Numbered from the stretch's first letter, positions 5,782 to 64,000 are shown. The stretch: 64,000 nt of DNA from Candidatus Oxydemutatoraceae bacterium (GCA_965220085.1 CBDCOZ010000002.1:64001-128000), one strand, 5' to 3'. Program-made: numbers and translations. The notes: generated by a model not told the origin, from the sequence alone.

Positions 5782-7348
5782 GTGTTTTATGATCGCACGG
5801 ACGAAACACGCCACTCGGATTTTGATTGTGCTGTCGGCGCTGACGCCGGCGCTCTCCGCTTGCATGAGCGATTGGCGCAACGCAGCGCTCGCGGGTGTTT
5901 TATGATCGTGCGAATGAAACACGCCGCTCGGGTTTTGATTGTGCTGTCGGCGCTGACGCCGGCGCTCTCCGCTTGCATGAGCGATTGGCGCAACGCAGCG
6001 CTCGCGAGAGTTTTATGATCGTGCGGATGAAACACGCCGCTCGGATTTTGATTGTGCTGTCGGCGCTGCCGCCGGCGCTCTCCGGCTGCATGAACGATTG
6101 GCGCAACACAGCGCTCGCAGGTGTTTTATGATCGTGCGAATGAAACACGCCGCTCGGATTTTGATTGTGCTGTCGGCGCTGCCGCCGGCGCTCTCCGCTT
6201 GCATGAGCGATTGGCGCAACGCAGCGCTCGCGAGAGTTTTATGATTGTGCGGATGAAACACACCGCTCGGATTTTGATTGTGCTATTGGCGCTGACACCG
6301 GCGCTCTCCGGTTGCATGAGCGATTGGCGCAACGCAGCGCTCGCGAGAGTTTTATGATCGTGCGGATGAAACACGCCACTCGGATTTTGATTGTGCTGTC
6401 GGCGCTGACGCCGGCGCTCTCCGCTTGCATGAGCGATTGGCGCAACACAGCGCTCGCGGGTGTTTTATAATCGTGCGAATGAAACACGCCGCTCGGATTT
6501 TGATTGTGCTGTCGGCGCTGATGCCGGCGCTCTCCGCTTGCATGAGCGATTGGCGCAACGCAGCGCTCGCGAGAGTTTTATGATCGTGCGGATGAAACAC
6601 GCCGCTCGGATTTTGATTGTGCTGTCGGCGCTGCCGCCGGCGCTCTCCGGCTGCATGAACGATTGGCGCAACACAGCGCTCGCAGGTGTTTTATGATCGC
6701 GCGAATGAAACACGCCACGCGGATTTTGATTGTGCTGTCGGCGCTGATGCCGGCGCTCTCCGCTTGCATGAGCGATTGGCGCAACGCAGCGCTCGCGAGA
6801 GTTTTATGATTGTGCGGATGAAACACACCGCTCGGATTTTGATTGTGCTATTGGCGCTGACACCGGCGCTCTCCGGTTGCATGAGCGATTGGCGCAACGC
6901 AGCGCTCGCGAGAGTTTTATGATCGTGCGGATGAAACACGCCACGCGGATTTTGATTGTGCTGTCGGCGCTGATGCCGGCGCTCTCCGCTTGCATGAGCG
7001 ATTGGCGCCAATAGCGCTCGCAGGTGTTTTATAATCGTGCGGATGAAACACGCCACTCGGATTTTGATTGTGCTATTGGCGCTGACACCGGCGCTCTCCG
7101 CTTGCATGAGCGATTGGCGCAACGCAGCGCTCGCAGGTGTTTTATGATCGTGCGGATGAAACATGCCGCTCGGATTTTGATTGTGCTGTCGGCGCTGATG
7201 CCGGCGCTCTCCGCTTGCATGAGCGACTGGCGCAACGCAGCGCTCGCGGGTGTTTTATGATCGCACGGACGAAACACGCCACTCGGATTTTGATTGTGCT
7301 GGCGGCGCTGACGCCGGCGCTCTCCGCTTGCATGAGCGATTGGCGCAT
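5782..7348 (+). repeat. Tandem array of 14 x ~113 bp copies of the 5' end (lipoprotein signal) of the DUF3750 gene
   Basis: Unit gttttatgatcgtgcggatgaaacacgcc...gattggcgcaacgcagcgctcgc recurs every 113 bp from ~5784 to ~7252 with mosaic SNPs. The last copy continues into the gene. Confidence 0.97.
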
Positions 7349-7814
7349 GGCATCGCGCGAGTCAATCGGCATCGCACCGCTTGCCGCCGACGAACCGGAG
7401 GCGGTGGTGCAAGTGTATGCGGCGGCGACGTTCGGATGGCGCGGCTGGTTTGCCGATCACACATGGGTCGCGACCAAGTCGGCGCAAGCCGAGCAGTACA
7501 CGGTCTATGAAGTGCTCGGCTGGCGGATCTATCGCGGCGACCCGATCGTGCGGATTGCGCAGGACTTGCCGGATCGCAAATGGTTCGGCTCCGAACCGAG
7601 AATCCTGATCGATCTGCGCGGCGCGGTGGCGGAGGCGGTCGCGGAAAAAGTGGACGAAGCCGCGCGCAGCTATCCGTATCACAACAAGTACCGCATGTGG
7701 CCGGGCCCAAACAGCAACACCTTCACCGCCTGGATCGCACACCAAGTCCCGGAGTTAGGGCTGGACTTGCCGCCGCGCGCCATCGGCAAGTCCTACCCGT
7801 TGGAGGCACACTAA
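7257..7814 (+). CDS. DUF3750-family putative lipoprotein
   Basis: Lipobox LSAC, VQVYAA..FGWRGWFADHTW, WFGSEP and YRMWPGPNSNTF. Confidence 0.8.
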   Translation: MIARTKHATRILIVLAALTPALSACMSDWRMASRESIGIAPLAADEPEAVVQVYAAATFGWRGWFADHTWVATKSAQAEQYTVYEVLGWRIYRGDPIVRIAQDLPDRKWFGSEPRILIDLRGAVAEAVAEKVDEAARSYPYHNKYRMWPGPNSNTFTAWIAHQVPELGLDLPPRAIGKSYPLEAH

Positions 7815-7832
7815 CTTCCGCCGGATAACTCC

Positions 7833-9200
7833 GTGAGCCGCCTGCCAGACAACGCGACGATTGCGGCGGTTGCCACGCCCGCGGGCTACGGCGGTGTCGG
7901 CATCGTGCGCATCAGCGGCGCGCGCGCGCGCACAATCGGTTTGCAACTGACCGCGCGACGCGCGCTGCAAGACCGCCGCGCGACCTTCTGCCGCTTCATC
8001 GCCGCCGACGGCGAGCCGATAGACGAAGGCATCGCCCTGCTGTTTGCGCGACCCCGCAGTTACACCGGCGAAGATGTGTTTGAAGCGCACGCCCACGGCG
8101 GCCCGGTCGTGTTAGAAATGCTGCTCGCCCGCGTCCTTGAATTGGGCGCGCGAATGGCCGAACCCGGCGAGTTCAGCCGGCGCGCGTTTCTCAACGGCAA
8201 GCGCGACCTCGCCCAACTGTCGGCGGTTGCCGACTTGATTAACAGCGCCAGCCAACAGGCCGCGCGCAGCGCCCGCCGTGTCGTGCAAGGCGAGTTCTCC
8301 GCGCAGGTGCGGGTCGTGTGCGAGGAGCTCAAGTCGTTGCGGGCGCTGATCGAGGCGACGCTGGATTTTCCCGACGAGGAAGACGTAACGGAAGACAACA
8401 CCCTGCAACAAACCTTGTGCGCCCGCGTCAAGGCGCTGGCACAGGCGGTGGCCGAGTTAGAACGGCGGGCGACGGGCGGGATGCGCTTGCACGAGGGCCT
8501 GGAGTTGGTCATCGCCGGCCAACCCAATGTCGGCAAGTCCAGTTTGCTCAACTGCCTCGCGCAGCGCGAGACGGCCATCGTCTGCGATGCGCCGGGGACG
8601 ACACGCGATGTCGTGCGGTGCGATATTTTGATCGACGGCATGCCGATGCGCGTTCTGGACACCGCAGGGCTTCGCCCGGGCGCCGATGCGGCGGAGCGCG
8701 AAGGCATTCGCCGGGCGCATCAAGCGATGGAGAGCGCCGATGTGGTGGTCGTCTTGGCGGATGCGACGGCGGGGCTTGGCGCGGCGGGGCGCGAGTTGCT
8801 GGATAAGTTGGCCGCCGCCGGCGCCAATGTGATCACCGCGTTGAATAAGAGCGACCTGCTCAAAGCGCCGCCGCCGGAGTCGGACACATTATATGTGTCT
8901 GCCAAAACCGGCGCCGGCATCGCTGCGCTGTGTGCGGCGATCAAAGAGAAAGCGGGGGTTGTCGATCTCGGCGAGGATACGCTGGTCGTGCAACGGCGGT
9001 ATCTGGATGCGTTGAGTCATGCGCGCAAAAACTTGGCGGCGCTCGCGCACAATCTTACGACAAGCGATGCCGATGTAGCGCTTGACATGCTCGCTCAAGA
9101 CTTGCGCGACACGCATCAAAGTTTGTCCGCGCTGCTCGGCGAGTACGCCACCGAGGACATGCTGGGCGATATCTTCTCGCGGTTTTGCATCGGCAAATAA
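7833..9200 (+). CDS. mnmE: tRNA modification GTPase MnmE (TrmE)
   Basis: Motifs TIAAVATPAG.GGVGIVRISG, GQPNVGKSS, GTTRD, DTAG, NKSD and C-terminal FSRFCIGK. Confidence 0.98.
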   Translation: MSRLPDNATIAAVATPAGYGGVGIVRISGARARTIGLQLTARRALQDRRATFCRFIAADGEPIDEGIALLFARPRSYTGEDVFEAHAHGGPVVLEMLLARVLELGARMAEPGEFSRRAFLNGKRDLAQLSAVADLINSASQQAARSARRVVQGEFSAQVRVVCEELKSLRALIEATLDFPDEEDVTEDNTLQQTLCARVKALAQAVAELERRATGGMRLHEGLELVIAGQPNVGKSSLLNCLAQRETAIVCDAPGTTRDVVRCDILIDGMPMRVLDTAGLRPGADAAEREGIRRAHQAMESADVVVVLADATAGLGAAGRELLDKLAAAGANVITALNKSDLLKAPPPESDTLYVSAKTGAGIAALCAAIKEKAGVVDLGEDTLVVQRRYLDALSHARKNLAALAHNLTTSDADVALDMLAQDLRDTHQSLSALLGEYATEDMLGDIFSRFCIGK

Positions 9201-10345
9201 GTCGTCACGGCGCGGGCCGGCGGATGCGCAGATACGCCGGATGGCGCGGCAAGCCGTTGCGCGTCAAGCCCTGATAGGGGGAGTTGTCAATCTCGGCGAG
9301 GACGCGCTGGTCGTGCAACGGCGGTATCTGGATGCGTTGAGTCATGCGCGCAAAAACTTGGCGGCGCTCGCGCACAATCTTACGACAAGCGATGCCGATG
9401 TAGCGCTTGACATGCTCGCTCAAGACTTGCGCGACACGCATCAAAGTTTGTCCGCGCTGCTCGGCGAGTACGCCACCGAGGACATGTTGGGCGATATCTT
9501 CTCGCGGTTTTGCATCGGCAAATAAGTCGTCACGGCGCGGGCCGGCGGATGCGCAGATACGCCGGATGGCGCGGCAGGCCGTTGCGCGTCAAGCCCTGAT
9601 AGGGGGAGTTGTCAATCTCGGCGAGGACGCGCTGGTCGTGCGGGGGCGGTATTTGGATGCGCTCGGTCATGCGCGCAAAAACTTGGCGGCGCTCGCGCAC
9701 AATCTTACGACAAGCGATGCCGATGTAGCGCTTGACATGCTCGCTCAAGACTTGCGCGACACGCATCAAAGTTTGTCCGCGTTGCTCGGCGAGTACGCCA
9801 CCGAGGACATGTTGGGCGATATCTTCTCGCGGTTTTGCATCGGCAAATAAGTCGTCACGGCGCGGGCCGGCGGATGCGCAGATACGCCTCGCGGTTTTGC
9901 ATCGGCAAGTAAGCCGTCACGGTGCGGGCCGGCGGATGCGCAGATACACTGGATGGCGCGGCAGGCCGTTGCGCGTCAAACCCTGATAGCGGTAAGTAAT
10001 CGTCGCGCCGACCGGCGCTGGTCGTGCGGGGGCGGTATTTGGATGCGCTCGGTCATGCGCGCAAAGACTTGGCAGCGCTCGCGCACAAACTCACGACAAG
10101 CGATGCCGGGTTAGCGCTTGACATGCTCACGCAAGACTTGCGCGACACCCATCAAAGTTTGTCCGCGTTGCTCGGCGAGTACGCCACCGAGGACATGTTG
10201 GGCGATATCTTCTCGCGGTTTTGCATCGGCAAGTAAGCCGTCACGGCGCGGGCCGGCGGATGCGCAGATACACCGGATGGCGCGGCAGGCCGTTGCGCGT
10301 CAAACCCTGATAGCGGTAAGTAATCGTCGCGCCGACCGGCGGCGG
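8954..10345. repeat. Nested tandem duplications of the convergent mnmE 3' end plus ligase 3' end (~325 bp unit)
   Basis: The mnmE tail (...FCIGK*) reappears ending at 9525, 9850, ~9912 (short) and 10236, each followed by the reverse-strand ligase tail (YQGLTRNGLPRHP.YLRIRRPAP). Confidence 0.95.
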
Positions 10346-11140
10346 GTCTTTGCGTTGCGCATCCGACAGGCCGCTGCCGATGCGAAAGACGCGCCCTTGC
10401 GGGGTGCGCACCCGCAGCGAGCCGGTCATGCCGGCGTATTTGCCGCGCCCCGGGCGGTGGCCGATAACGGTCGCTTCGGCATCATAAAACGGTTTGTATT
10501 TGAGCAAGTCTCTGCTGCGCCCGCTTTGATGATAGGAGTCTATCCGCCGCAACATCAGCCCTTCGCCGCCGCCGGCAACGGTCTCGTCAAAGAGCGCTTG
10601 CAACGCTTCGCGCGAGGCGACGGGCCGCTGTCGCACGACTTGCCAGAAAGCGTTTTTACTGGCGGCGACAAGCGCGCGCAGCGCCGCCTGCCGCTGCCGA
10701 AATGTTCCGGCGTGTGCGGGCAGGTCAAACACCATGAAACGAATCTCGCGCCAGCCATCGTGCGGTTGCTGTTTGCGCACGACCGAGACGGTCGCCTCAA
10801 ACTGCCCGCGCCCCAACCACAACTCACCGTCCAGCGCTGTGGCGGGAAGGTCGGCGACGAACCAGTGCGGCGCGGCGAACACATTGCCGCTGCGCGAGCG
10901 CAATCGTTGCCCGTCCCACACCGCGCGCACGCCATCGTATTTTTCACTGACCCAATACTCGGCGAGGTCCACCGTGTTGTCGTCGGGGCGATAGGCGTCG
11001 GCGAGCGACACTTCGGGCGCTGCTTTGGTCGCATCCGCCGCGTCCGCAACGGGGTGCGGTATCGCAACGCCGACGGCGAAGATCGCGCAGGCAATCAGGT
11101 TTGTCGTGCGCGTGAAAGTAACTGTAAAAATGTTCATCAT
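10241..11140 (-). CDS. Minimal ATP-dependent DNA ligase with N-terminal signal-like sequence (Lig E type)
   Basis: Motif I SEKYDGVRA, LDGELW, GGEGLMLR, LLKYKP and OB-fold IGSGLSD. Hydrophobic N-terminus ending VADA. Start uncertain (11137-11218). Confidence 0.9.
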   Translation of the reverse strand: MMNIFTVTFTRTTNLIACAIFAVGVAIPHPVADAADATKAAPEVSLADAYRPDDNTVDLAEYWVSEKYDGVRAVWDGQRLRSRSGNVFAAPHWFVADLPATALDGELWLGRGQFEATVSVVRKQQPHDGWREIRFMVFDLPAHAGTFRQRQAALRALVAASKNAFWQVVRQRPVASREALQALFDETVAGGGEGLMLRRIDSYHQSGRSRDLLKYKPFYDAEATVIGHRPGRGKYAGMTGSLRVRTPQGRVFRIGSGLSDAQRKDPPPVGATITYRYQGLTRNGLPRHPVYLRIRRPAP

Positions 11141-11397
11141 GGCCTTATAAAACACCATTACAAGGCCTGCGCCGCAACCAATATGCCGAAAGAGCCATTT
11201 TTTCCGATAAGCGGTCATGCATCATGCCGAAGCATTGCGGGGTTCCGGCTACAACACGATGCAATAGCAACACCGGCTACGGCATCAACGGTTTCTATGA
11301 AAGCGGGGATGTCTGGCGCAAGCAAAACGGTGCGCCAGATACGTGCGGAAAGTTTGCGGTTGCCATCGGGTTGCGCACTCGTCAGCTTCCAAGGAGC

Positions 11398-11560
11398 GTG
11401 TCGTGCGAGCGTTGCGGGTGGCTACGCTATCGCAGCGGGCCTGCGAGGAGGAGTGTGTCGTGCGAGCGCTGCGGGTGGCTGCGTTATCGCAGTCGGTTGC
11501 GAGAAGGGATGTGTCGTGCGAGCGCCGTGAGGTTCTTGCGCTATCGCAGCGGGCCTTCCA
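11398..11560. repeat. Three degenerate ~56 bp tandem copies spanning the stop codon of the 11541 gene
   Basis: gtgtcgtgcgagcg...gctatcgcag at ~11398, 11455 and 11511. Confidence 0.8.
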
Positions 11561-13019
11561 GAAAGACGCGCAGTCGCAAGCGCAGGTGCTCCACCAGATT
11601 GATGTTCATGGTGCGGGTTTCGGTGTTTGGGCCGCCATAGTTCATGGTGTAGGTGAAACTGGCGAAGTTGGGTGTGACTGCGGAGTCGGGCGGGGGGTAA
11701 TAGATGAGCCTTTGTACTGTGTTAGCCAGGAGGTTGCTGCCTCTTCTGTTGGTGATGGGCCTGGATGCGCCTGCAAGATGCAATGTGCCGGTGCCGGATT
11801 CTATGGTGGTGACTATTCTGATGCTGACCAGCATGCCGACATCCTCGCCCGGGAATGCGAAGTCGGATGGCTTGAACCTGTAGGGCTCTGATTCGCTGGC
11901 GGTAATCGGCACACTCACCGAATTGGCTCTGGCGATGACGTTGCCTGCGGAACAGCGCATCTCGGCGGTGTTTATGCCGTCGGTGAAACGGAGGCAGGCA
12001 CGGATGTATTGGCCGACATGTTCCCGCGCGGGCGTGAAGGTGGCGACGGTGGCCCCGTCGATGTCGGCGTATGTGCCGGCCTGGGCGAGGGCGGATTGCC
12101 ATTGCCAACTGCGTCTGTGGGTGGGGATGCCGTTGGCATCGGCTACGGTGCCTATGCCGGCGGTCAGTTCCACGCCTTCGTGATAGGCGATGCCCGATGC
12201 CGCTGTCACAGTCGCTGTGCCGGTGGCCGGCACTGCCGTGGCCGGCACCAAATCAATGGTGATGGTGCCATTGTTACTGCAACAATTTGTAGCGAAGATT
12301 GTTTCAGTCCTTATTGAATATTCAAAATTGGCATAGCCCGCCATGGCCGTGGCCCCATCGGGCGGCGTGTATGTGACAAGACCCTCTGCAAGTTCTTGAG
12401 CGGTAAAGCTCTGACCGGCGGATACGCTGTTGGAAATACCGGTAACACTAACAGTCATGGCTCCAAGGGCGGGCACAGATTGTGCGACCATCACTCCTAG
12501 CGCACTACCATCTTCATCGGTAAACGGGAAGTCATCCGCCGAGAAGACATATCTGCCGCCCGCCCGCACATAGATGGTGTTGTTATCTGCAACCGGGGCA
12601 TCATTGACATTGACCACAGCGGCGGCGGAGCTCCAGCATCGGGTCTCGTCGTTGCCGGCATCATCGTCAAAGGCGGCGCAGACGCGCAGAAACTTGCCGA
12701 CATGAGCCTGCAGGGGCGTGAAGGTGGCGGCGGTTTCCCCGGTTATGGCGGAGTAGGCGCTGTCCGCCGGGGTGCCGCTGGCCGGGGCATCGGCTTGTTG
12801 CCACTGCCAAGTCGGCGTGAAAGTGGTTATGCTGTCGGGGTCGTTTATGGTGCCCTGGGCGGCGGTCAGCACACTGTCCTCATTCGGTCCCGTCGTGGTC
12901 AGGTTGGTGCCGTCCGCCGCCGTGACGCCCGGTGTGCCAGTGGCGTTCTGCGCTTGCGCCTGAGCGCAGACAACAAACAGCGCCGGCAACAGAAGCGACC
13001 AAAGACTGCGCCGTATCAT
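11541..13019 (-). CDS. Secreted Ig/cadherin-like repeat protein (putative adhesin), paralog A
   Basis: Signal peptide (...AQAQA), two WQWQ..Y..I.G.T.ATFTP...HVG..(L/I)R.C..F modules, VNVNDAPVA, C-terminus HLRLRLRVFLEGPLR. True start may be ATG 13087 (see poly-C finding). Confidence 0.75.
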   Translation of the reverse strand: MIRRSLWSLLLPALFVVCAQAQAQNATGTPGVTAADGTNLTTTGPNEDSVLTAAQGTINDPDSITTFTPTWQWQQADAPASGTPADSAYSAITGETAATFTPLQAHVGKFLRVCAAFDDDAGNDETRCWSSAAAVVNVNDAPVADNNTIYVRAGGRYVFSADDFPFTDEDGSALGVMVAQSVPALGAMTVSVTGISNSVSAGQSFTAQELAEGLVTYTPPDGATAMAGYANFEYSIRTETIFATNCCSNNGTITIDLVPATAVPATGTATVTAASGIAYHEGVELTAGIGTVADANGIPTHRRSWQWQSALAQAGTYADIDGATVATFTPAREHVGQYIRACLRFTDGINTAEMRCSAGNVIARANSVSVPITASESEPYRFKPSDFAFPGEDVGMLVSIRIVTTIESGTGTLHLAGASRPITNRRGSNLLANTVQRLIYYPPPDSAVTPNFASFTYTMNYGGPNTETRTMNINLVEHLRLRLRVFLEGPLR

Positions 13020-13036: not shown

Positions 13037-13067
<31 letters not shown>

Positions 13068-13189: not shown

Positions 13190-13300
13190 CCGTTGTTTGT
13201 GTCCTTGATTAATCGTTTGTGGTCCCTTAAGTTGTTTGTGTGTCCTTGATTCATTGTTTGTAACTTCTTAAATTGTTTGTCCTCATAAACTGTTTGCAGA
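13190..13300. promoter_or_regulatory. AT-rich upstream region with (T/C)GTTTG motifs at ~20 bp periodicity
   Basis: GTTTG cores at ~13194, 13214, 13233, 13255, 13273 and 13291; GTGTCCTTGATT occurs twice. Confidence 0.5.
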
Positions 13301-15162: not shown

Positions 15163-15403
15163 CATGTCTTTGTAGCTTGCCGCATTCCTTGTGCGCTCCT
15201 GATACTTGCCCTCGCCCTGCGGCGGCATAGCCTGCCCCGTCCGCAATGTCTTTGTATCTTGCGCCTCCTTGTGCGCCTGACACGCGCCCTCTCCTTGCGG
15301 CGGCACAGTGCCCGCCCCGTCCGCAATGCCTTTGTATCTTGCGCCTCCTTTGTGCGCCTGACATGCGCCTCGCCCTCGCCTGCGGCACAGCGCCCGCCCC
15401 GTC
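15163..15403. repeat. Three degenerate ~80 bp intergenic tandem repeats
   Basis: atg(t/c)ctttgta(t/g)cttg...tgcggc(g)gca(c/t)ag...gccccgtc at ~15163, 15243 and 15323. Confidence 0.8.
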
Positions 15404-15637: not shown

Positions 15638-16477
15638 ATGAGTTTACGGCACAAGAGCAGAATGGTTTTACTGACGGCGGTGGCGGTGCTGCTGCCGGGT
15701 TGCGGTCATGCTATCTTTGAGCGGCTTGCGTTCGCGCCGGCCGCGCGGCTGTCGCCGACACAAAACCACTGCGACTATTACGAGTACGCCGACCGCACGT
15801 GCGAGGAGATCGGCAGCCGCGAAATTTTCTTTCCGTCGCTGGATGCGCAGATCGAATTGCAGGGGTTGTTCTTTCCCAACGCGCAGTCGGATCGCATCAT
15901 CGTCTACTTTCACGGCAACGGCGGGCATGTGTATATGCGCATCCCGTATCTGGTCAAACTGTCGCAGATTGCAAACGTCTTTATCTTGAGTTATCGCGGT
16001 TACGGCAAGAGTCAGGGCAAGCCCACCGAGGCGGGCATCTATCAGGACGCGCGCGCTGCGCTGCGGTATGTGCGCGCGCAACTGGGGTTTGCTGCGGACA
16101 AGACATACTTGTACGGCGGGTCGCTGGGGGCGGCGGTGGCGATAGAGGTCGCGCAGGATGCGACCTATGCCGGACACATTTTGATTGCGCCCTTTTTGAG
16201 CGGCAAGGCGATGGCCGAGAAGCGCGGGCTGGGGTGGGTGCCGGGGCTCGGCCGTCCGTTTGATTCGGTGAACAAGGTGGCGGATATCACCGCGCCGACG
16301 TTGTTCATTCACGGCACCGAGGATGCGATCGTGCCGTATGCGCAGGGCTACGCGCTCTATCAGGCGTTCCCGGGACGCAAGACGTTTAAGACGGTGGAGG
16401 GCGCCGGGCATACCGGCTTGATCCGCCATGTCGGCGATGAGTATTGGCGGTGGCTGCGGGAGTTCGTCGCGCCATAA
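15638..16477 (+). CDS. Alpha/beta hydrolase (BEM46/ABHD-like), putative lipoprotein
   Basis: YFHGNG, YRGYGKS.G.PTEAG, GGSLG nucleophile, IHGTEDAIVP, GAGH and lipobox-like LPGC. Confidence 0.9.
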   Translation: MSLRHKSRMVLLTAVAVLLPGCGHAIFERLAFAPAARLSPTQNHCDYYEYADRTCEEIGSREIFFPSLDAQIELQGLFFPNAQSDRIIVYFHGNGGHVYMRIPYLVKLSQIANVFILSYRGYGKSQGKPTEAGIYQDARAALRYVRAQLGFAADKTYLYGGSLGAAVAIEVAQDATYAGHILIAPFLSGKAMAEKRGLGWVPGLGRPFDSVNKVADITAPTLFIHGTEDAIVPYAQGYALYQAFPGRKTFKTVEGAGHTGLIRHVGDEYWRWLREFVAP

Positions 16478-16499
16478 TCGGTCGCGTGTAAAATGTTGC

Positions 16500-16990
16500 G
16501 AGCGCTCTATCGGGCGTTCCCCGGACGCAAGACGTTTAAGACGGCGGAGGGCGCCGGTCATGCCGGCTTGATCCGCCGAGTCGGCGACGAATACTGGCGG
16601 TGGATGCGGGAGTTCGTCGCGCAATGACGCGGCGCGTGTGAAATGTTGCGAGCACTCTATCAGGCGTTCTAATCGCGCCCTTTTTGAGCGGCAAGGCGAT
16701 GGCCGAACGGCGCGGGCTGGGGCGGGCGCCGGGGCTCGGTCGTCCGTTTGATTCGGTGAACAAGGTGGCGCATATCACCGCGCCGACGCTGTTCATTCAC
16801 GGCGCCGAGGCTGCGATCGTGCCGTATGAGCAGGGCTACGCGCTCTATCGGGCGTTCCCGGGAAACAAGACGTTTAAGAAGGCGGAGAGCGCCGGGCACA
16901 CCGGCTTGATTCGCCAAGTCGGCGACGAATACTGGCGGCGGATGCGGGAGTTCGTCGCGCAATAGTCGGTCGCGTGTAAAATGTTGCGAT
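16500..16990 (+). repeat. Two diverged partial duplicates of the hydrolase 3' end
   Basis: 16500-16650 copies ~16350-16500, and 16670-16990 copies ~16180-16500 (ORF 16684-16965 ...WRRMREFVAQ). Confidence 0.9.
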
Positions 16991-17016
16991 AGGAGCATTA
17001 AACCGGAGGGGGTACG

Positions 17017-18051
17017 ATGGAATACAGACAACTTGGAACTACGGACCTTCGCGTCAGCGTCATTTGTCTTGGCACGATGACGTGGGGCGAGCAGAACGAC
17101 GAGCGCGAGGGGCACGCGCAACTGGATTACGCGCTGGAGCGCGGCATCAATTTTATTGACACCGCCGAGATGTATCCGGTGCCGCCGTGCGCGGAAACGC
17201 AGGGGCGCACCGAGGCGATCATCGGCAACTGGCTTGCCAAGCGATCGGATCGCGATCAGTTGATTATCGCGAGCAAAGTATCCGGCCCCGGCATGCAGGA
17301 GTATCTGCGCGGCGGGCCGAAACTGGCGCGCGACCATCTGGAGCGGGCGCTGGCCGACAGCCTGACGCGGTTGCAGACCGATTACATAGACCTCTATCAG
17401 GTGCATTGGCCGGCGCGGCATACCAACTTCTTCGGGCGCTTGGGCTATACGCACGCCGATGATTCGGAGGCGACGCCGATTGCGGAGACTTTGGCGGCGC
17501 TGGATGAGATGGTCGCGGCGGGGAAGGTGCGCCACATCGGCATCTCCAACGAGACGGCGTGGGGGACTATGCATTGGGTGCGGCTTGCCGAGCAACATGG
17601 TCAGGCGCGCATCGTCTCGGTGCAGAATCCTTATAACCTGCTCAACCGCACCTTTGAGGTCGGCTTGGCGGAGGTGGCGCACCGCGAACATGTCGGGTTG
17701 CTCGCTTATTCGCCGCTGGGGTTTGGGGCGCTGAGCGGAAAATATCTCGGCGGGCGGAAGCCGCCGAAGGCGCGCCTGACCTTGTTTGAGCAGTTCAAAC
17801 GCTATACGAGCGCGCTCGGGGAGGAGGCGACGCGCCGCTATGTCGATGTCGCGCGCGCGGCCGGGCTGGACCCGGCGCAGATGGCGCTGGCGTATGTCAA
17901 TACGCGGTCTTTTTTGACCGCCAATATCATCGGGGCGACGACGATGGAACAACTTGCCGATGACATTGCGAGCGCGGAGGTCGCGCTGTCCGATGATGTG
18001 CTGGATCAAATAGAGGAGATTCATACCGCCATTCCCAATCCCAGCCCCTGA
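17017..18051 (+). CDS. tas: NADP(H)-dependent aldo-keto reductase Tas
   Basis: ICLGTMTWGEQN, INFIDTAEMYPVPP, LYQVHWP, IGISNET.WG, SVQNPYNLLNR and LAYSPL.FG.LSGKY. Confidence 0.92.
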   Translation: MEYRQLGTTDLRVSVICLGTMTWGEQNDEREGHAQLDYALERGINFIDTAEMYPVPPCAETQGRTEAIIGNWLAKRSDRDQLIIASKVSGPGMQEYLRGGPKLARDHLERALADSLTRLQTDYIDLYQVHWPARHTNFFGRLGYTHADDSEATPIAETLAALDEMVAAGKVRHIGISNETAWGTMHWVRLAEQHGQARIVSVQNPYNLLNRTFEVGLAEVAHREHVGLLAYSPLGFGALSGKYLGGRKPPKARLTLFEQFKRYTSALGEEATRRYVDVARAAGLDPAQMALAYVNTRSFLTANIIGATTMEQLADDIASAEVALSDDVLDQIEEIHTAIPNPSP

Positions 18052-19010
18052 TGCCGTACCCCGACATCAGGCCGGAGCATCATCGCGCCGAGGGCGACGG
18101 GCGTATCGTTAGCATCGCGCTGAACGGCGGCGCCGAGGGGGGCGCTGTGGCGCTTGGGCCGGAACTTTTGAACGGCGTTGGAAGGCAGTTTGAAAACTGG
18201 TATGCGACGCCCGCCGCGCCGGTGCGCGCGCATGAGAGCGGCGTGCGCTATGCGGCGAACGCGGACATGGCCTGCGGGTTTTTGCCGCTGCGGCGGGGGC
18301 AGCCGGTGGCCGAGACGACCGCGCGGTTTTATCGGGCGCTGTTTGCGATTCTCAAAGAGTGCGGCGACTTCGCGCCGCTTCGGGTCTGGCATTACCTGCC
18401 GGATTTGAGCGGCGCGGGCGAGCCGACGCCGTATCGGATGTTTTGCCGCGCGCGGGCGGCTGTCATCGGCGCGGTGAGTCCCGGGATGCTGTGCGCGGCG
18501 ACTGTCATCGGCAGCGGCGCGGAGCACGGCCTGCTGTATTTTCTGGGCGGCGAGCGGGGCGGGCGCGTGATTGATAACCCGCGCCAGACCAATCCGAGCG
18601 ATTATCCGGCGCAGTATGGCGACCCGCCGCCGCTGTTTGCGCGCGCCGTGTTGCACCGCAGCGCTGCTGCCTGCCGACTGTATATCTCAGGCACCGCGAG
18701 CATCGTCGGCCATCGCTCGTGCCATGCGGGCGACGCTGTGGCGCAACTGGATGAGGTGGCCGACAACCTGCAGGCGTTGCTGGCGGCTGCGGCTGAGGCG
18801 GAACCCGCGTTTGCCGACAAGACCTTGCGCGACCTGCGCAGCGCCCGCCTCTACCTGAAGCGCCGCGCGGATTATGACGCTGTTGCCCGCGCCTTGCCCG
18901 CCCGCTTCGGTGCGCTGCCTGACCTCAAAATCTTTCGCGGCGAGATCTGCCGCCCCGAGTTGCTGGCGGAGATGGAGGGGATGATTGAGCAGCGGCGGGA
19001 GGGGACGTGA
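18051..19010 (+). CDS. FkbO/Hyg5/XanB2-family chorismatase-like protein
   Basis: LRVWHY, NPRQ...YP.QYG..PP.FARA, ISGTASIVGH and ICRPELL.E.EG. Confidence 0.8.
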   Translation: MPYPDIRPEHHRAEGDGRIVSIALNGGAEGGAVALGPELLNGVGRQFENWYATPAAPVRAHESGVRYAANADMACGFLPLRRGQPVAETTARFYRALFAILKECGDFAPLRVWHYLPDLSGAGEPTPYRMFCRARAAVIGAVSPGMLCAATVIGSGAEHGLLYFLGGERGGRVIDNPRQTNPSDYPAQYGDPPPLFARAVLHRSAAACRLYISGTASIVGHRSCHAGDAVAQLDEVADNLQALLAAAAEAEPAFADKTLRDLRSARLYLKRRADYDAVARALPARFGALPDLKIFRGEICRPELLAEMEGMIEQRREGT

Positions 19011-19620
19011 TGCGGTGCGCGGATTATGACGCTGTTACCCGCGCCCTGCCCGCCCGCTTCGGTGCGCTGCCGAATCTTAAAATCTTTCGCGGCGAGATCT
19101 GCCGCCCCGAACTGCTGGCGGAGATGGAGGGGATGATTGAGTGCTGGCGGGAGGGGGCGTGATGCGGTGCGCGGATTATGACGCTGTTGCCCGCGCCTTG
19201 CCCGCCCGCTTCGGTGCGTTGCCGGAGCTTAAAACCTTTCGCGGCGAGATCTGCCGCCCCGAGTTGCTGGCGGAGATGGAGGGGATGATCGAGCAACGGC
19301 GGGATGTGATGCGGTGTGCGGATTATGACGCTGTTCCCCGCGCCTTGCCCGCCTGCTTCGGTGCGTTGCCGGAACTTAAAATCTTTCGCGGCGAGATCTG
19401 CCGCCCCGAACTGCTGGTGGAGATGGAAGGGATGATCGAGCACCGCCGGGAGGGGACGTGATGCGGTGCGCGGATTATGACGCTGTTACCCGCGCCTTGC
19501 CCGCCCGCTTCGGTGCGCTGCCGGAACTTAAAATCTTTCGCGGCGAGATCTGCCGCCCCGAACTGCTGGTGGAGATGGAAGGGATGATCGAGCACCGCCG
19601 GGAGGGGACGTGATGCGGTG
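18867..19620 (+). repeat. Five tandem ~150 bp copies of the chorismatase-like 3' end (first is the gene itself)
   Basis: gcggattatgacgctgtt at ~18867, 19019, 19171, 19318 and 19470. Confidence 0.95.
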
Positions 19621-19706
19621 CGGTGTGCGAGAGATTTGCGATGCCACATGCCATGACCGTTGTCACCGAGTTGGGGTGATGCGGTGCGCCCGACGGGGGG
19701 CTTGCG

Positions 19707-20522
19707 ATGCCTGAGTTGCCGGAGGTTGAAACGACTCGGCGCGGCATCACGCCGCATCTTGCGGGCAAGCACATCGGCGAGGCGGTCGTGCGCCAGCACC
19801 GCTTGCGCTTGCCGGTGACGCGCGGGCTCGCCGGCAAGGTCGGCGGGCAGCGGGTCGTGCGGGTGTCGCGGCGCGGCAAGTATATTCTGTTGCACTTGCA
19901 ACGCGGCTGCCTGCTCTTTCACCTCGGCATGTCCGGCAGTTTGCGCATCCTGCGAGAGGCGAGCGCGCCCGCCGCTCACGACCATCTGGACATCGTGATG
20001 AAGAACGGAACCGTCATGCGCTTTCGCGACCCGCGCCGCTTCGGTACCGTCCTGTGGCTGGCGGGCGACCCGTTGCGGCACAAGTTGCTGGCGCGCCTTG
20101 GGCCCGAACCGCTGGGCGACGAGTTCACCGGCGCGCATCTGCACCGCGCGGCGCAGGGGCGGCGCACGGCGGTGAAGAATCTGATTATGGACTCGCATGT
20201 CGTCGTCGGTGTCGGCAACATTTACGCGAGCGAGGCGCTGTTTGCGGCGGGCATCCATCCGGCGCGACCGGCGTGTCGCATCTCAAAGCCTCGCTACGAG
20301 CGACTTGCGGATGCCATCCGCGATGTGCTGGCGGAAGCAATCGCCGCCGGCGGAACTACGCTGCGCGACTTCATGCGCGAGGACGGGCGGCCCGGATACT
20401 TCAGTGTGAAGCTGTCGGTCTATCATCGTGCGGGAGAGGCGTGCCCGGTTTGTGCGACGCCGATTGCCAAGCGTGTCATCGGCCAGCGCGCGAGTTTTTA
20501 TTGTTCGCGTTGCCAGCGCTGA
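19707..20522 (+). CDS. mutM: Formamidopyrimidine-DNA glycosylase
   Basis: MPELPEVET, RRGKY, HLGMSG, DPRRFG, GVGNIYASE and C-terminal zinc finger CPVC..YCSRCQ. Confidence 0.98.
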   Translation: MPELPEVETTRRGITPHLAGKHIGEAVVRQHRLRLPVTRGLAGKVGGQRVVRVSRRGKYILLHLQRGCLLFHLGMSGSLRILREASAPAAHDHLDIVMKNGTVMRFRDPRRFGTVLWLAGDPLRHKLLARLGPEPLGDEFTGAHLHRAAQGRRTAVKNLIMDSHVVVGVGNIYASEALFAAGIHPARPACRISKPRYERLADAIRDVLAEAIAAGGTTLRDFMREDGRPGYFSVKLSVYHRAGEACPVCATPIAKRVIGQRASFYCSRCQR

Positions 20523-20686
20523 TGAGGGGCGCAAGGCGGAATTTTATGAGTGTTCCTAAATTAGTATTCGTTAATTCTTTTTCTCTTCCGTCATCCCATC
20601 GTTATATTTGGGAATGAAGGGAATCTCAATTCCCGAATCGGGATTGGACTTTGCGTCTATCCGGACAACCGAGGACCACGGAAGCG

Positions 20687-21379
20687 TCAAAGCAAACCGT
20701 TCTCCGAATCGTAGGCATAAACAAAGTCATGGCTGTTCCTCAATAATATCAATTGTTTTTTCTGAACAGTTTTCCCCGTCATTAAAAATACGCTTGCGGT
20801 TTCTTTCTCGGCAATGGTATCGCCAGCAGCTTCACGCCCCAACACATAGGGCTGTAGAAGAAAAAACACGGGAGCAAAATAGCAAAATAAGAAGAGAGGG
20901 ACATTTCGGGGTGCCCGCGGATGATTGAATGCCCAGTTAATAAAGTAGTGCCACGCTACAAAAACAAAAAGGAAAAGAAGCATCGGCGGAACTTTCCCAA
21001 AGCGATATGCCACCGTTCCCACAGCCAGCACAATCATAATGGGCAAGAAAATATCTGTCCCCCTCCAAATAAGCTTAGTGAATCGGGGGAATGGCGATCC
21101 TCGAATGAGCTCATCTTCGCTCTTGTACCCTTCTGCCCTGCGGCCAAACGCGATAAGTGTGACCGTGCCAATTATCACTATAATGAGACCCTCAACCCAT
21201 GCCAAGCTCCCCACTATGTCGGCAGACGAAATCGGAATTTCCCTAAGGGACACATCAAGCGCACTCCAAAATCCCCATTCCCAGAAAAAGGAATAACCTA
21301 GGGACAAAGCGCCAAGTAAGGCGATCCACTCAACGATGGATAGCCTCGCAAACAGTGTTGAACCGGATTTTTCCGCCAT
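20687..21379 (-). CDS. Hypothetical multi-pass membrane protein
   Basis: 230 aa, about five hydrophobic segments, GGAGG RBS, lower GC than its neighbours. Confidence 0.7.
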   Translation of the reverse strand: MAEKSGSTLFARLSIVEWIALLGALSLGYSFFWEWGFWSALDVSLREIPISSADIVGSLAWVEGLIIVIIGTVTLIAFGRRAEGYKSEDELIRGSPFPRFTKLIWRGTDIFLPIMIVLAVGTVAYRFGKVPPMLLFLFVFVAWHYFINWAFNHPRAPRNVPLFLFCYFAPVFFLLQPYVLGREAAGDTIAEKETASVFLMTGKTVQKKQLILLRNSHDFVYAYDSENGLL

Positions 21380-21456
21380 CTCGCGCCTCCCGTTACAAAA
21401 GCGCTATGGCTTTTTGATACTGCCCCGCATGGAGTGCGCATGCGGCGCGGGTTGTT

Positions 21457-50067: not shown

Positions 50068-50913
50068 GGGTATTCTCCACTCCGAGAATTTCAATGGTGT
50101 CTGCCTGTTTCCAATCCAGTCCTCCGTCGGGTTTTCTTGGGATGGGATTGTGAGCGGGCACAAATATCAAGCGCTGAATATCCGTTAAATCGACCGACAA
50201 CTGACATTGCCGCCCGCGCTTGCCGCCGGTCAACTCATGACAGCGCGCCGGAGGAGTTTTGGGAGGCCCCATGTCCGCAAGCGTTTTGGCGGCGGCTAGT
50301 TCGGCCATGCGTCTGCGTATTTTTTTGACCATGCTACCATACTCTTTACTTAAGATTGCGTTCGCTGTTAAAAGTTTTCTCAAGTTTTTTCGTTCGGGAT
50401 TGTGAGCGGGCACAAATATCAAGCGCTGAATATCCGTTAAATCGACCGACAACTGACATTGCCGCCCGCGCTTGCCGCCGGTCAACTCATGACAGCGCGC
50501 CGGAGGAGTTTTGGGAGGCCCCATGTCCGCAAGCGTTTTGGCGGCGGCTAGTTCGGCCATGCGTCTGCGTATTTTTTTGGCCATGCTACCATACTCTTTC
50601 TTAAGATTGCGTTCGCTGTTAAAAGTTTTCTCAAGTTTTTTCGTTCGGAAATGTGAGCGGGCACAAATATCAAGCGCTGAATATCCGTTAAATCGACCGA
50701 CAACTGACATTGCCGCCCGCGCTTGCCGCCGGTCAACTCATGACAGCGCGCCGGAGGAGTTTTGGGAGGCCCCATGTCCGCAAGCGTTTTGGCGGCGGCT
50801 AGTTCGGCCATGCGTCTGCGTATTTTTTTGGCCATGCTACCATACTCTTTCTTAAGATTGCGTTCGCTGTTAAAAGTTTTCTCAAGTTTTTTCGTTCGGA
50901 AATGGATAACCAT
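50057..50913 (-). pseudogene. higB: HigB-like (RelE/ParE fold) toxin gene disrupted by internal ~251-bp triplication
   Basis: RRMAELAAAKTLADM...PPARCHELTG..LSVDL occurs three times; a single start (50913) and a single C-terminus (IEILGVENTHGK). Confidence 0.85.
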
Positions 50914-54917: not shown

Positions 54918-55810
54918 CTAATTGCCCCCCAGAGGGGAATCCATGCACCTGTTCACAGGCTCGACTTCCAGCTTTTCGTCCACTTTGGCCTGCAAGGTGC
55001 CAAGAAATGCATCTATTCTACCCACTTTTGGCCGGGTTATGCCACGCAGAGCGGCATCAAATTTTGTATGCAGGGTTTTATGGTGCCGCAGCGTATAGCC
55101 GCCATTGTCCGGTGCCATCTCCAGCCGGTAAACAAGCCATGCCATATCAGCATCCGCCTGTGGTACCGCCTCCATCTCTGGCAGGGTATTGAAAAACGGC
55201 TCGTCCATGGCGACCGCCATTTTCTTGCCCCAAGCATGAAAAATGGCACCCTTGAACATCAGTTGAGGTGCCAGCCGCTTGCGGGAGGATGACAAGAAAT
55301 CCGGTCTGGGGTAGTTGGGCTGGTCGCGCCAATCCATCAGTGCGCGCCCTTGGCAGTCTTCCATGTAATGGGCAAAGGGTCTTCGCACATTGCCGATATG
55401 TACACTGCCTGAATCTCAAGGGCACCAAAATCGCAGACTCTGCCATGCTCGTTGTATGCAACCAGAATCATATCCACATTGCCAGCAGATTGGCCATTGC
55501 CATCAGCCAGCCGCACCTCGGTAAGCGAAGTCCAACGGGCACCATTGGGGAAGAAGAAACGCGCCGCATCATCGGCTATAAGCCAATCCTCACGGAAGCG
55601 AATCGGGCAAGTTATAACGGTCCCCGCATCACTGTTTATGCTACAAATGCCCAGAGGGTCTTTGGCCTTGTCCTTGGTGCAGTTTGGCACCTTGTTGTTG
55701 AACGGGCATAGCTTGTTTGTGCGAAACCGCCTGGCCCTGTCGCTGGCATCTGCCGGCAGATGCCCGAACACCTCAGCCAAGGGATGCTTTGGCTCTCCCG
55801 AATACGGCAT
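54918..55810 (-). pseudogene. NotI-family restriction endonuclease, frameshifted near 55392
   Basis: LAEVFG, CPF..C.K..G.CS..CP.RF, GNVD and EIQAVYIS, then a frame change to RPDFLSSSRKRLAPQL..KG. Confidence 0.8.
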
Positions 55811-61257: not shown

Positions 61258-61479
61258 TCGGTTTTTCCTTTGGCAGAATTCTATCACTTCTCCGTAGTGT
61301 ATCCCCTCTCCAGCGAGCGAAGCTCGCTGACTCTCCCGCAAGGGGAGAGTGCTACCAGTGCGAGCAACTTAAATATGCTTATTCCACCGCATTAATCAAG
61401 ACTCTCCCGCAAGGGGGAGCACACAGTGCGAGGGAGGCGGTTGAGCAAGCGGGTTAGGAGAGGCAATTAAGCAAGCAGG

Positions 61480-64000
61480 CTAGGAGGCGAGGGTGGCTTC
61501 AATAATATCCTGCATATAGTTTTGCTCATCCAAAAAGTACACGCCATCGCGTTTCCATTGCTCCAGCGGACGCTGCTCTCCTATATTCCCTCGCGCAGTC
61601 ACGGACAATATGTATGCATGCAAATGAATACTGGAATCCTTCTCGCGTATTTTTTGCTCTATACCCTTGATGTTGTGGTGTAACTGCACCTTTCTTTTCT
61701 CCTTGTCGCCATACCTGCTTAACCCCTTGGGGTCCAGAAAGACGACATGTTGCTGCGTGCCCTTTTTCAGCCATATTATGAAGTCGGGGTAATAATGAAA
61801 ATCATCAAAGAATGACACACCCCGCCCGCGACTCATGTTGCGTAGCAGATACAGCTCCCAACCCTGAAGGCAGGAATTTTCTTCCCCGGCTAGTTCCACC
61901 AGAGAGTCAACAGCCTTTTTCTCATCCGGGTTCAAGGCAACCGGCTGTACGGTTATCTGGCAATCTTTAAGGGCAGACAGCAGGGGCTTGTACGCATGGA
62001 TGTCCGTCATAATGGCACCCACACCCACACCAGTGGCATAAGGGCTCACACCAGTGGCATAAGGGCTAATACTGCGTCCTGTTCTTCTCAAGTTTTCTTC
62101 CAGCCGCTTCACATCCCGTATCAGTTTCTCCTGTGCGGCACTGACCAGCAACTTGTACTCCTTGACAATGTTAGGGTGGTTTTTATCCAGCTTGACCACC
62201 TCAAGATGTTCTTTTTCCCATTTGCTTCGGCGGGTGCGCCAAAGCCTCTCGGCGTATCGGGTAATCAAGTCTATGGCCAAATCTTCCAGTTCGCGCAGTG
62301 CTGACAAATCATTAATCACATTACGACGATTCGGTGGCATGTATAGCTCATACCAGCCTGTCTGCTCTAAAAACCTGTCTATCGCCTGCCGTTCAATCGT
62401 CAGGTTGTGCCAATTGTTGCGGCGTTTGTGCTCCAGCAGTTTTTCATAGATACGCGCCTTGTCAAAAAAACCGGTTTGCCAAGGTTCCAGATTCATCTTG
62501 ACTTCATCTGCCTCCGGCACATCCCCTACCGAGCCAGAATCAACCTTCTGCAAAGACGAATACAGGTTCAGCACCACCGGTTCAGCATCTTTTGCGGGGC
62601 CGCAAAGTACCGGTCGCTCCGCAGAGCATTCAAACTTTTCGCCACCCTTGACGCGAATCAGCTTCAGGCCCTTTTGCCTGCCAAAATTCCATGCAACCGG
62701 CAACGTGAAAATTTTCAGCTCTGTATCTATGCCCGCTTCTTCCATCAGCGTTTTAAAAGTCTGCATATAGTTCGCCCGCAGACCGAAAATATTCAGCGTC
62801 TCCAGCTTGACCAGATCCGTACCGTCTGATGGCAATTCAGCGCCGCTTTTCTGGTGCCGTTTCAGGCTCATCTTCCAGCCGCGCAAGCGCACACCACGGC
62901 CGAACATCTGAATTATCTCCGGCCCCTCGCCGACACCCACATGCATCAGCCCCATGGTGCTGACGCGCCAGGAATTCCAGCCAGCGATAAATCGCCGTGC
63001 GCCGATGACGATATTGACTGTGGAATCCGGGCGGTCTACATCTGCAAACAAGCGCTTTGCGAAGCCGGCCTCGCGTTCTATTTTCAGGTCAGGGTTGCCC
63101 AACTCTGTCAGCAGTTTGTGCAATTTGGTGGAATCGCCAACATTAACCACGCCGAAGGTAGGGTTATCACCACAGCGCAAATGCATCTCGCCTTCGCCCC
63201 TGGCCAGATACGCCACATGCAGGTGCCCGCGCCCGTGAAACAATGCCATGCATATATCGTCATATATGTTAGTTGTCTTACACTGCTTCAGATAATCAAA
63301 GCGGCCAGAAAAATAATCCTTGCCAGCTTCATCGTGCAACCCGGTTTTACCCTGCAACAGGGCATCAATTACAGGTTGCACATTGTCGGCATGCGCCAGT
63401 ACCCAGCCGAGAAAATCCAGTATACGCACCACATCAGAAGTCGTCTCTTTGGCCGCATTGCTGGAGCCGATAACAGTCCTGCCAAGGAACACCCACAGCG
63501 GTCTGGTAATGTTGAAGTCCTGCCACTGTGCCCCTTTGTCCTGCCAAATACGATACTGCTGGTAAAAAATCAGCAGGCACCCCAGCAGATAAATGTTGCT
63601 GTTGTGCTCTCCCATATCTTCCTGCAGGTTGGATATGGAGTAGTCTTTGCCGTAGCCATCCTGGTGAAAGTGGCGATAGGCGTAATCAAACAGCAGGCAC
63701 TTACCGTAGAAGGCCAGCATCTCTTTGTCCTTGCCCGCCACCTGGTTGAAGGTGGCGGAATACTCAAATGTGAAGCCGCCTCGTGCCAACTCCTTGCGCC
63801 GCTTGCGCCACACCCTGCCGGATGCGCCCAGATGCCCCTCATCCACCAATACCAGATTGTCATCACCGAAAGCACTGGATGCGACGCGCTTGATGCCCTT
63901 TTTCTCAGCCAGTTTGTTCAGGTCAATGATCTCTATATGCCGGAATAGCCCGGGTCTGGCATCAGCAGAGAACAGCCGTGCCTCCAGACCACTGTGCTTC
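61480..64000 (-). CDS. Type III Res-like DEAD-box helicase-nuclease (5' end outside window)
   Basis: IIDLNKL, LVDEGH, FEYSATF, GWNSWRVS.MGL, QMFGRGVRL and YYPDFI..FLDPKG. Confidence 0.88.
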   Translation of the reverse strand, partial: KHSGLEARLFSADARPGLFRHIEIIDLNKLAEKKGIKRVASSAFGDDNLVLVDEGHLGASGRVWRKRRKELARGGFTFEYSATFNQVAGKDKEMLAFYGKCLLFDYAYRHFHQDGYGKDYSISNLQEDMGEHNSNIYLLGCLLIFYQQYRIWQDKGAQWQDFNITRPLWVFLGRTVIGSSNAAKETTSDVVRILDFLGWVLAHADNVQPVIDALLQGKTGLHDEAGKDYFSGRFDYLKQCKTTNIYDDICMALFHGRGHLHVAYLARGEGEMHLRCGDNPTFGVVNVGDSTKLHKLLTELGNPDLKIEREAGFAKRLFADVDRPDSTVNIVIGARRFIAGWNSWRVSTMGLMHVGVGEGPEIIQMFGRGVRLRGWKMSLKRHQKSGAELPSDGTDLVKLETLNIFGLRANYMQTFKTLMEEAGIDTELKIFTLPVAWNFGRQKGLKLIRVKGGEKFECSAERPVLCGPAKDAEPVVLNLYSSLQKVDSGSVGDVPEADEVKMNLEPWQTGFFDKARIYEKLLEHKRRNNWHNLTIERQAIDRFLEQTGWYELYMPPNRRNVINDLSALRELEDLAIDLITRYAERLWRTRRSKWEKEHLEVVKLDKNHPNIVKEYKLLVSAAQEKLIRDVKRLEENLRRTGRSISPYATGVSPYATGVGVGAIMTDIHAYKPLLSALKDCQITVQPVALNPDEKKAVDSLVELAGEENSCLQGWELYLLRNMSRGRGVSFFDDFHYYPDFIIWLKKGTQQHVVFLDPKGLSRYGDKEKRKVQLHHNIKGIEQKIREKDSSIHLHAYILSVTARGNIGEQRPLEQWKRDGVYFLDEQNYMQDIIEATLAS

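Follow-up and report, generated by a model that had tools for sequence, protein, structure and literature searches.

Tandem duplications at gene ends in a Candidatus Oxydemutatoraceae bacterium and their relation to gene orientation and reading frame

The stretch considered here, 64 000 nucleotides of a Candidatus Oxydemutatoraceae bacterium (GCA_965220085.1 CBDCOZ010000002.1:64001-128000, that is C2:64001-128000 of the genome under study, G000; the whole of it is called the window), is rich in tandem arrays in which the end of a gene and its flank are copied head-to-tail, each extra copy being called an echo in what follows. The window starts with dnaN-dnaA-rpmH-yidC-mnmE, followed by TPR, RCC1 and Sel1 repeat genes and by a restriction and toxin-antitoxin cluster. 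The G000 assembly (2.49 Mb, 3 contigs, 99% complete, approx. 56% GC) belongs to an organism whose MnmE relatives are gammaproteobacterial (39-49% identity) and which, from its load of repeat proteins, we presume to be a host-associated marine bacterium. A first reading, made from the sequence alone (the sequence-only reading), had proposed window-wide tandem duplication of gene ends. Tandem Repeats Finder (TRF) and self-BLAST located the arrays at or near the listed loci, with several labels corrected. The arrays are real and genome-wide, and they obey two structuring rules that the sequence-only reading missed, namely a concentration at convergent gene junctions and in-frame translational coupling. 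The features of the window are as follows.

5778-7359, plus strand: 113-bp × 13.9 array, 91% alike, between yidC and the DUF3750 gene (TRF, self-BLAST)
7257-7814, plus strand: intact DUF3750 gene, 185 amino acids, its start at 7257 lying within the last array unit
8948-10341, unstranded: nested arrays with periods of 325, 62 and 386 bp at the convergent junction of mnmE and an ATP-dependent ligase gene (TRF, self-BLAST)
11391-11563, minus strand: 57-bp × 3 array, 78%, at the 3' tail of a cadherin-like (adhesin) gene
15164-15403, unstranded: 80-bp × 2.9 intergenic array, 84%
16184-16989, plus strand: 3' end of an alpha/beta hydrolase gene and its two echoes (150 and 318 bp)
18853-19622, plus strand: 152-bp × 5 array of a chorismatase-like 3' end
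19980-33438, unstranded: old kb-scale duplications, 70-90% alike, of TPR and RCC1 genes
30152-30176, minus strand: 12-bp in-frame duplication, SCEP twice
36824-36981, unstranded: 77-bp × 2 array of a dispersed hairpin resembling repetitive extragenic palindromes (REP-like)
46725-46988, plus strand: 40-bp array of approx. 6 (5.7) units upstream of fic, ending at the fic ATG
48342-48873, unstranded: 77-bp × 6.9 array of the dispersed REP-like hairpin in the convergent gap between fic and the HTH-IrrE gene
48895-48992, minus strand: degenerate short echo of the HTH-IrrE (higA-like) 3' end, approx. 36 bp, offset approx. 62
50144-50904, minus strand: 251-bp × 3 array within a higB-like gene (50913-50057), which is split into truncated open reading frames (ORFs)
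62026-62067, minus strand: 21-bp in-frame duplication, SPYATGV twice

Arrays of the window and of the genome

TRF gave 22 merged arrays with a period of at least 20 bp in the window, to be compared with 3 such array rows altogether in 20 shuffled windows, and this count is the highest among the 40 64-kb bins of G000 (bin range, 3-22). In the whole genome 394 merged arrays of this class cover 9.1% of the bases. With a stricter definition (period of at least 40 bp, at least 85% alike) 227 arrays are counted, corresponding to 9.1 per 100 kb. The units of 136 of these have no distant copy, those of the other 91 are also found elsewhere, and the unique-unit arrays have a mean unit of 149 bp and a median identity of 93-96%.

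That the arrays are artefacts of assembly, or stacked haplotypes of different strains, is very improbable. The only sample matching the stretch in full (X1) may be the source sample of the assembly, only one raw Hi-C read fell on the stretch and no array-spanning long read was seen, all of which leaves room for such an explanation. Against it, the unitigs of X1, made by a different method and compared over 14 kb, contain the hydrolase echoes without a single difference (16189-16704 and 16677-18894), read depth is undiminished in the array bins, and no unit-skipping joint is found among those listed for the mnmE, hydrolase and chorismatase arrays. A second sample provides a piece without differences (18890-19045) over a joint, with 29 letters on one side, just below the 31-letter rule. 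Among 193 echo copies of 76 gene tails, the 411 distinct variants comprise 308 transitions (75%) and 103 transversions, with an excess at third codon positions (178), and only 10 of the 193 copies contain gaps, so that the variant spectrum among the copies is biological. Obedience of the arrays to the reading frame is also unexpected of an artefact, and other single-contig relatives carry few arrays.

At the individual loci, the DUF3750 array forms a chain of 13 mini-ORFs, 12 of 38 amino acids and one of 31, with 11 ATG and two ATA starts, each stop overlapping the next start and every member bearing the signal-peptide-like start of DUF3750. At the mnmE/ligase junction the 3' ends of both genes are copied, and the ancestral gap was approx. 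4 bp. The five-base microhomology (gcgct) reported at approx. 10015 shrinks to an overlap of three bases (GCG, 10015-10017). The ligase gene itself (10241-11158) encodes an ATP-dependent DNA ligase of the OB_2 type, which is convergent on mnmE and adjoins the origin region. The hydrolase echoes are each read by an in-frame ATG ORF (44 and 88 amino acids), and those of the chorismatase are stop-overlapping mini-ORFs of 50 amino acids upstream of mutM. The proposed echo of the mutM 3' end turned out to consist of internal pieces (amino acids 92-163) at 23215, 25371 and 29567, carried in the TPR/RCC1 duplications, within old TPR copies that are 70-85% alike; the proposed duplication of the RCC1 locus is of kb scale, at 87-90% in self-BLAST.

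An array does lie at the adhesin 3' end, as proposed, but the tail is not a local sequence only and belongs to a dispersed family (197 matches). Arrays of 56-58 bp with up to 16 copies and dispersed units are also found at gene 3' ends elsewhere in G000 (C3:1659677-1660556, 1577994-1578454 and 648591-648970), at least the first two of which resemble the adhesin tail, so that this tail has been amplified repeatedly. Nearby, a run of 27 G (13037-13063) lies directly upstream of where the minus-strand adhesin-like gene is called to start (poly-C when read along the gene), as would suit a phase-variation switch, and a 41-bp × 2 repeat is found at 13198-13280; an X1 unitig joint leading from 13261 back to 13231, with 13 other letters and a depth of 17.9, may mean that the population contains an additional unit or that a paralogue is involved.

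Both arrays of the 77-bp REP-like hairpin (78 matches in 44 1-kb bins; fold of −30.6 kcal/mol, calculated without a shuffle control) were absent from the earlier list. The 40-bp array at fic is present, but it copies upstream DNA up to the ATG rather than a gene terminus; its unit contains a TATAAT-like box and an inverted repeat. The higA echo exists, but as a degenerate stretch of only approx. 36 bp instead of approx. 63 bp, and the threefold 251-bp array of higB lies inside the gene and breaks it, so that the parental ORF is not intact. Of the small in-frame duplications proposed within ORFs, SCEPSCEP (30176) and the doubled SPYATGV (62067) were located, while the Sel1 linker shows a degenerate repeat by eye and no exact in-frame repeat in any of the three Sel1 proteins. 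The defence cluster at 36996-59964 contains type III restriction-modification genes, a second methylase, Fic, the HTH-IrrE gene with its broken HigB-like partner, AAA-DUF4143, a D12 methylase, GmrSD, AlbA_2 and a NotI-like nuclease split over two ORFs (54918-55810).

Gene orientation and reading frame

For the analysis of placement, genes were called by a self-trained simple caller (1987 genes in G000), the 134 unique-unit arrays of up to 600 bp were retained out of the 227 (91 dispersed and 2 longer ones being set aside), and 100 random placements served as the null. Convergent junctions hold 50 arrays (null, 7.5; maximum, 15), co-directional junctions 70 (null, 34.1) and divergent junctions 4 (null, 10.3), and only 10 lie within genes (null, 82). 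Expressed per junction, a unique-unit array is carried by 50 of the 204 convergent, 62 of the 1129 co-directional and 4 of the 201 divergent ones. A test independent of TRF gave 3' ends with an echo in 70/388 convergent and 45/1054 co-directional cases, and 5' ends with an echo in 26/1054 co-directional cases and 1/382 divergent cases. In convergent gaps, wholly intergenic arrays are barely enriched (8 versus approx. 4.9 expected), whereas gene-touching ones are enriched 16-fold (42 versus 2.6).

The sequence-only reading had treated echoes of 5' and 3' ends alike. Such symmetry does not hold, with 51 arrays over a 3' end alone (null, 8.0) and 6 over a 5' end alone (null, 9.2), an asymmetry that is due to the convergent junctions. 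Echoes are found on the tails of core genes such as mutS, uvrD, polA and rho. The position of the stop codon is even along the unit (87 tails), which implies that there is no fixed breakpoint. No clear bias between leading and lagging strand emerged (22 leading, 26 lagging; background, 0.66 leading).

The second rule concerns the reading frame. Co-directional echoes are opened by an in-frame ATG in 20 of 26 cases, compared with 11 of 52 control frames (p = 4e-6), and 12 of the 16 arrays spanning a stop codon and the next start fuse in phase (p = 8e-4). No excess of in-frame ATG codons was found for convergent echoes (15/59 versus 23/118; p = 0.44). In the window the rule is exemplified by the DUF3750 chain, which ends at the 7257 start, and by the chorismatase and hydrolase echoes, which are read in frame. 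Rho is present in G000, and Rho loads on untranslated RNA, leading to polarity, as described in the accessible part of PMC12548453. Of all the evidence that the pattern is shaped by selection, the frame rule is the strongest. The earlier proposal that duplications survive where genes stay usable is supported, with higB as the broken exception.

The possibility that the echoes are selected as mini-proteins was considered but found no support: 225 of the 411 variants change the amino acid, and the synonymous share, 0.45 versus 0.30 under neutrality, fits a constrained parent. The corresponding pN/pS of 0.39 is near the value of 0.42 that we estimate for two copies when a constrained parent is paired with neutral echoes. 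The echoes look like decaying by-products rather than cassettes.

Relatives, joints and the origin of the copies

Stretches of 40-100 kb were sampled from each of 22 of the 30 relatives, and 80 mnmE loci of distant outgroups (1.54 Mb) served as controls. No array was found in these 1.54 Mb. The congeners G009 and G013 carry 12 and 11 arrays per 100 kb (59 and 45, respectively, on 500 kb each), G004 and G008 4 each, and the others 0-3, save G005. The latter was discarded as a dense genome, 8 of its 9 arrays being one dispersed 98/107-bp element, which forms arrays of 2-3 copies at 8 places in 100 kb. With 9.1 arrays per 100 kb in G000 versus mostly 0-4 in relatives and none in the outgroup, the excess of local tandem duplication that had been proposed for this lineage is borne out, and the duplicator trait is patchy and does not extend to the whole family.

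Over 65.7 kb, G009 and G013 are 81% alike; of the 15 units that could be matched between them, 13 have no array at the corresponding place. The arrays are therefore young and mostly species-specific, with a fast turnover, from which it follows that arrays are also being lost. Some gene ends have been struck independently: mnmE is echoed with a 325-bp unit in G000 and a 208-bp unit in G009, and mutS with 147 bp in G000 and 231 bp in G013. An ancestral mutS array common to G009 and G013 was rejected, since the equal period of 231 bp is a coincidence and the units do not match. The convergent bias recurs in G009 (14 arrays versus 1.0 expected). As side observations, G009 contains a dnaQ-like gene twice in tandem together with a 5' fragment (C1:1632817-1634158), a whole-gene tandem duplication of a proofreading subunit in a duplicator genome, and in the 60-contig genome G010 the mnmE match is in three pieces (C26:28262-29776), owing to frameshifts or assembly errors.

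Joints were tried on 88 arrays; 83 gave a value, and 71 of these fell within −20 to +25. Overlaps of at least 4 bp were found in 25 of the 71 (2.9% in simulation) and overlaps of 0-3 bp in 16, while in clean two-copy cases the joints overlap by 2-10 bp or contain small inserts. Microhomology at the junctions, as initially suggested, is therefore enriched but is not the rule.

Taken together, the pattern is probably best described by short template-switch duplications, often with microhomology, on which selection against gene breakage and polarity acts as a filter. On this description the lineage would produce, unusually often and without a dedicated element, head-to-tail duplications of approx. 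40-600 bp, most likely by replication slippage or template switching, the joints showing anything between no homology and 4-14 bp of microhomology, as well as small inserts. Once two copies are present, misalignment or unequal exchange may add or remove units and mix single-nucleotide differences. Selection would then sort the copies, as the placement pattern indicates. Within genes only in-frame copies would persist, unless the gene is dispensable (as higB may be); in operons, copies would persist mainly if the unit supplies a start codon that matches the frame of the copied tail, which lets ribosomes pass on and averts Rho polarity. At tail-to-tail junctions copies would accumulate without a frame rule because nothing downstream is at stake, and promoter-side junctions would seldom tolerate them.

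Mobile elements, REP-like repeats or a reverse transcriptase are very unlikely to produce the copies. G000 does contain insertion sequences (IS; approx. 10 rve-type and 8 IS1595-type copies) and two reverse transcriptase genes (C3:1925765-1926349 and C1:170091-170651), and the 91 arrays with units found elsewhere could be taken in favour of such an origin; however, the majority of the units are unique local sequence, an IS copy lies within 3 kb of only 3 of 122 unique arrays (approx. 5 expected), G009 and G013 have no reverse transcriptase match, and the breakpoints are not tied to transcript ends. The statement that the duplications occur without any mobile element is partly incorrect, given the REP-like arrays of the window and the IS copies elsewhere in G000; no transposase match was found, however, among the 69 ORFs scanned in the window, and the IS copies do not lie near the arrays.

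A specific repair defect, for example RarA-driven RecA-independent recombination left unchecked by RecQ, RecJ or ExoI, is an unlikely, though somewhat less remote, cause. G000 contains recA, recFOR, ruvABC, recG, mutS, mutL, uvrD, xseA, dnaQ and an AddA-like helicase; searches with E. coli queries did not find recJ, sbcB, sbcD, recQ, radA, recC, recD or mutH, and radD and uup were not found either. All four denser genomes (G000, G004, G009 and G013) have rarA and lack recQ. In the parts of the sources available, most of the RecA-independent recombination between short repeats depends on RarA (PMC8735627), and repeats expand more when Uup and RadD are lost (PMC7145654). However, the sparse genomes G019, G024 and G028 are also rarA-positive without a recQ match, with 1, 1 and 0 arrays in 100, 100 and 40 kb, respectively; G009 and G013 have recJ, which is absent from g2 and g3, genera of low density; and radA, radD and uup (0 of 31 genomes, the latter two searched without a positive control) and ExoI (2 of 31) do not separate high from low density.

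Single repair genes were rejected as causes from their counts in the 31 genomes (mutS over cut-off in 25, recJ in 15, recQ over cut-off in 5, rarA in 15). The rarA gene was promising as a marker on 5 genomes and failed on 31; xseA, a Y-family polymerase, dprA, DinG/YoaA, mfd, gyrA/parC, topA and DEDD exonucleases are present in 5 of 5. The repair defect that the sequence-only reading had placed behind the process is thus not borne out: mutS, mutL and recA are present, no gene loss among the families tested tracks array density, and none is common to the duplicators only. The losses may be permissive but are not sufficient. The repair set is pared down across the order, whole genera having lost recJ and rarA in addition to the absences given above.

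Several observations weigh against the description of template-switch duplications filtered by selection. No cause of the high duplication rate was found. Placement rests on a self-made simple gene caller, and the finding that all 45 intragenic arrays are in frame is partly so by construction, as a frame-breaking array destroys the gene call. Negative overlaps make up 30 of the 71 joints (29% in simulation), and the microhomology count may be inflated, since partial copies mimic it. The in-frame ATG rule is not seen in G009 (1/5) or G013 (2/8), although numbers are small. G013 duplicates as much (its 45 arrays on 500 kb) without convergent bias, having 3 convergent arrays versus a null of 2.5, and convergent gene ends carry an echo in 14 of 58 cases in G009 but in 2 of 66 in G013 (p = 7e-4). 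Finally, when arrays are sorted by the ancestral convergent gap, they are found at 33 of 100 junctions with gaps of up to 30 bp, at 7 of 34 with 31-100 bp and at 4 of 34 with 101-300 bp, an excess at tight gaps (p = 1.2e-4 against target size) that is retained with native-like genes only (26/64, 6/26 and 1/11; p = 0.003). This trend is adverse because under a pure safe-harbour filter the wider gaps should carry more arrays.

The tight-gap excess opens the way to another explanation, namely that tight, terminator-poor convergent junctions are hotspots where forks stalled by head-on RNA polymerases, R-loops or supercoils give rise to duplications or let them expand, or that the spacer is kept as a transcript insulator, with selection against gene damage still acting on top. 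We regard it as rather doubtful. Gaps of up to 30 bp hold approx. 21 arrays per 10 kb of target, compared with 2-3.5 at 101-1000 bp; a hairpin resembling an intrinsic terminator is found at 0 of 35 short convergent junctions with arrays and at 4 of 87 without; and the contrast between wholly intergenic and gene-touching arrays, noted above, points the same way. Moreover, site preference differs between congeners of similar gene order, which a fixed filter does not predict. On the other hand, genes missed by the caller, RNAs or decayed arrays may lie concealed in wide gaps, the trend with gap width fails to reach significance in G009 (4/7 versus 7/18; p = 0.25), and mfd, gyrA/parC and topA are alike across the 5 genomes tested. 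In E. coli, transcription does not specifically attract gyrase to convergent regions, according to the accessible part of PMC12125540, and the fact that the arrays are mostly unconserved between species speaks against an insulator that is needed.

Known systems and biological meaning

The closest parallel in load and unit size is Ehrlichia ruminantium, with its long-period tandem repeats of variable copy number (PMC3287509 and PMC10710844, which in the portions available credit Collins 2005 and Frutos 2006). According to the accessible text of PMC3287509, 6.3% of that genome consists of tandem repeats, with a mean period of 139 bp and a 92% match, E. coli having 0.38%. With the TRF settings of that paper G000 gives 668 rows, with a union of 6.47% and a sum of 8.62% of the genome, so that load (6.47% versus 6.3%) and unit (149 versus 139 bp) are similar; in both cases the repeats are mostly noncoding and no dedicated element is involved. 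G000 differs in being GC-rich, gammaproteobacterium-like and tightly packed, and, as far as these sources go, copy-number variation has been shown in Ehrlichia only; convergent bias and frame rule are known for the G000 side of the comparison alone.

In coupling, G000 resembles the interspersed repetitive units of mycobacteria (MIRUs) and their variable-number tandem repeats (MIRU-VNTR), short tandem units between operon genes in which a small ORF coupled by a −4 overlap limits polar effects, as stated in the accessible part of PMC12548453. A coupled ORF of this kind was found in the DUF3750 and chorismatase chains and in the 20 of 26 co-directional echoes; however, MIRUs are described there as one dispersed, apparently mobile family, whereas the G000 units are copies of the local gene junction, most of them without a distant copy. 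Template switching and repeat expansion independent of RecA in E. coli would be a plausible source of units, expansion and mosaic copies, but in the portions available of PMC7145654 and PMC8735627 they were shown on plasmid repeats in mutants, and no corresponding gene loss sets the duplicator genomes apart from the non-duplicators. The mechanism is mostly ordinary.

Two further likenesses may be drawn. Like REP sequences and bacterial interspersed mosaic elements, the 77-bp arrays repeat a dispersed hairpin in tandem, in intergenic DNA at the 3' ends of genes, but they are a minority of the G000 arrays. BRCA1-deficient tumours have a tandem-duplicator phenotype with kilobase units tied to a known repair loss. 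Its head-to-tail duplications are likewise scattered, with microhomology and mostly sparing genes, whereas the G000 units are of 40-600 bp and no cause was found.

In the literature searched, with most subscription papers outside its coverage, no publication on convergent-junction arrays in a bacterial genome was found. Short-read assemblies would collapse such arrays, so that the trait may be under-reported. Overall, the picture is striking but mostly an ordinary mixture of copying errors and selection. It is conceivable, though we hold it to be improbable, that several lineages of the family are independently short-span tandem duplicators and that, in some of them, tight tail-to-tail junctions either serve as hotspots driven by transcription or acquire insulating spacers of their own making. 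Of the tight convergent junctions in G000, a third carry an array, and G013, the congener of the biased G009, duplicates as often yet ignores convergent junctions. If this were true, the family would offer a bacterial system, found in nature, in which the orientation of genes determines the site of structural mutation, and the near relatives would serve as internal controls. Junk DNA is normally lost by bacteria, and the gain of DNA at a quarter of the convergent junctions shows how intergenic DNA can arise. Through the frame rule, selection against polarity can be read naturally across the whole genome. As the trait is patchy among close relatives whose genomes are complete, comparison can be used to test what causes the high rate and the site preference.

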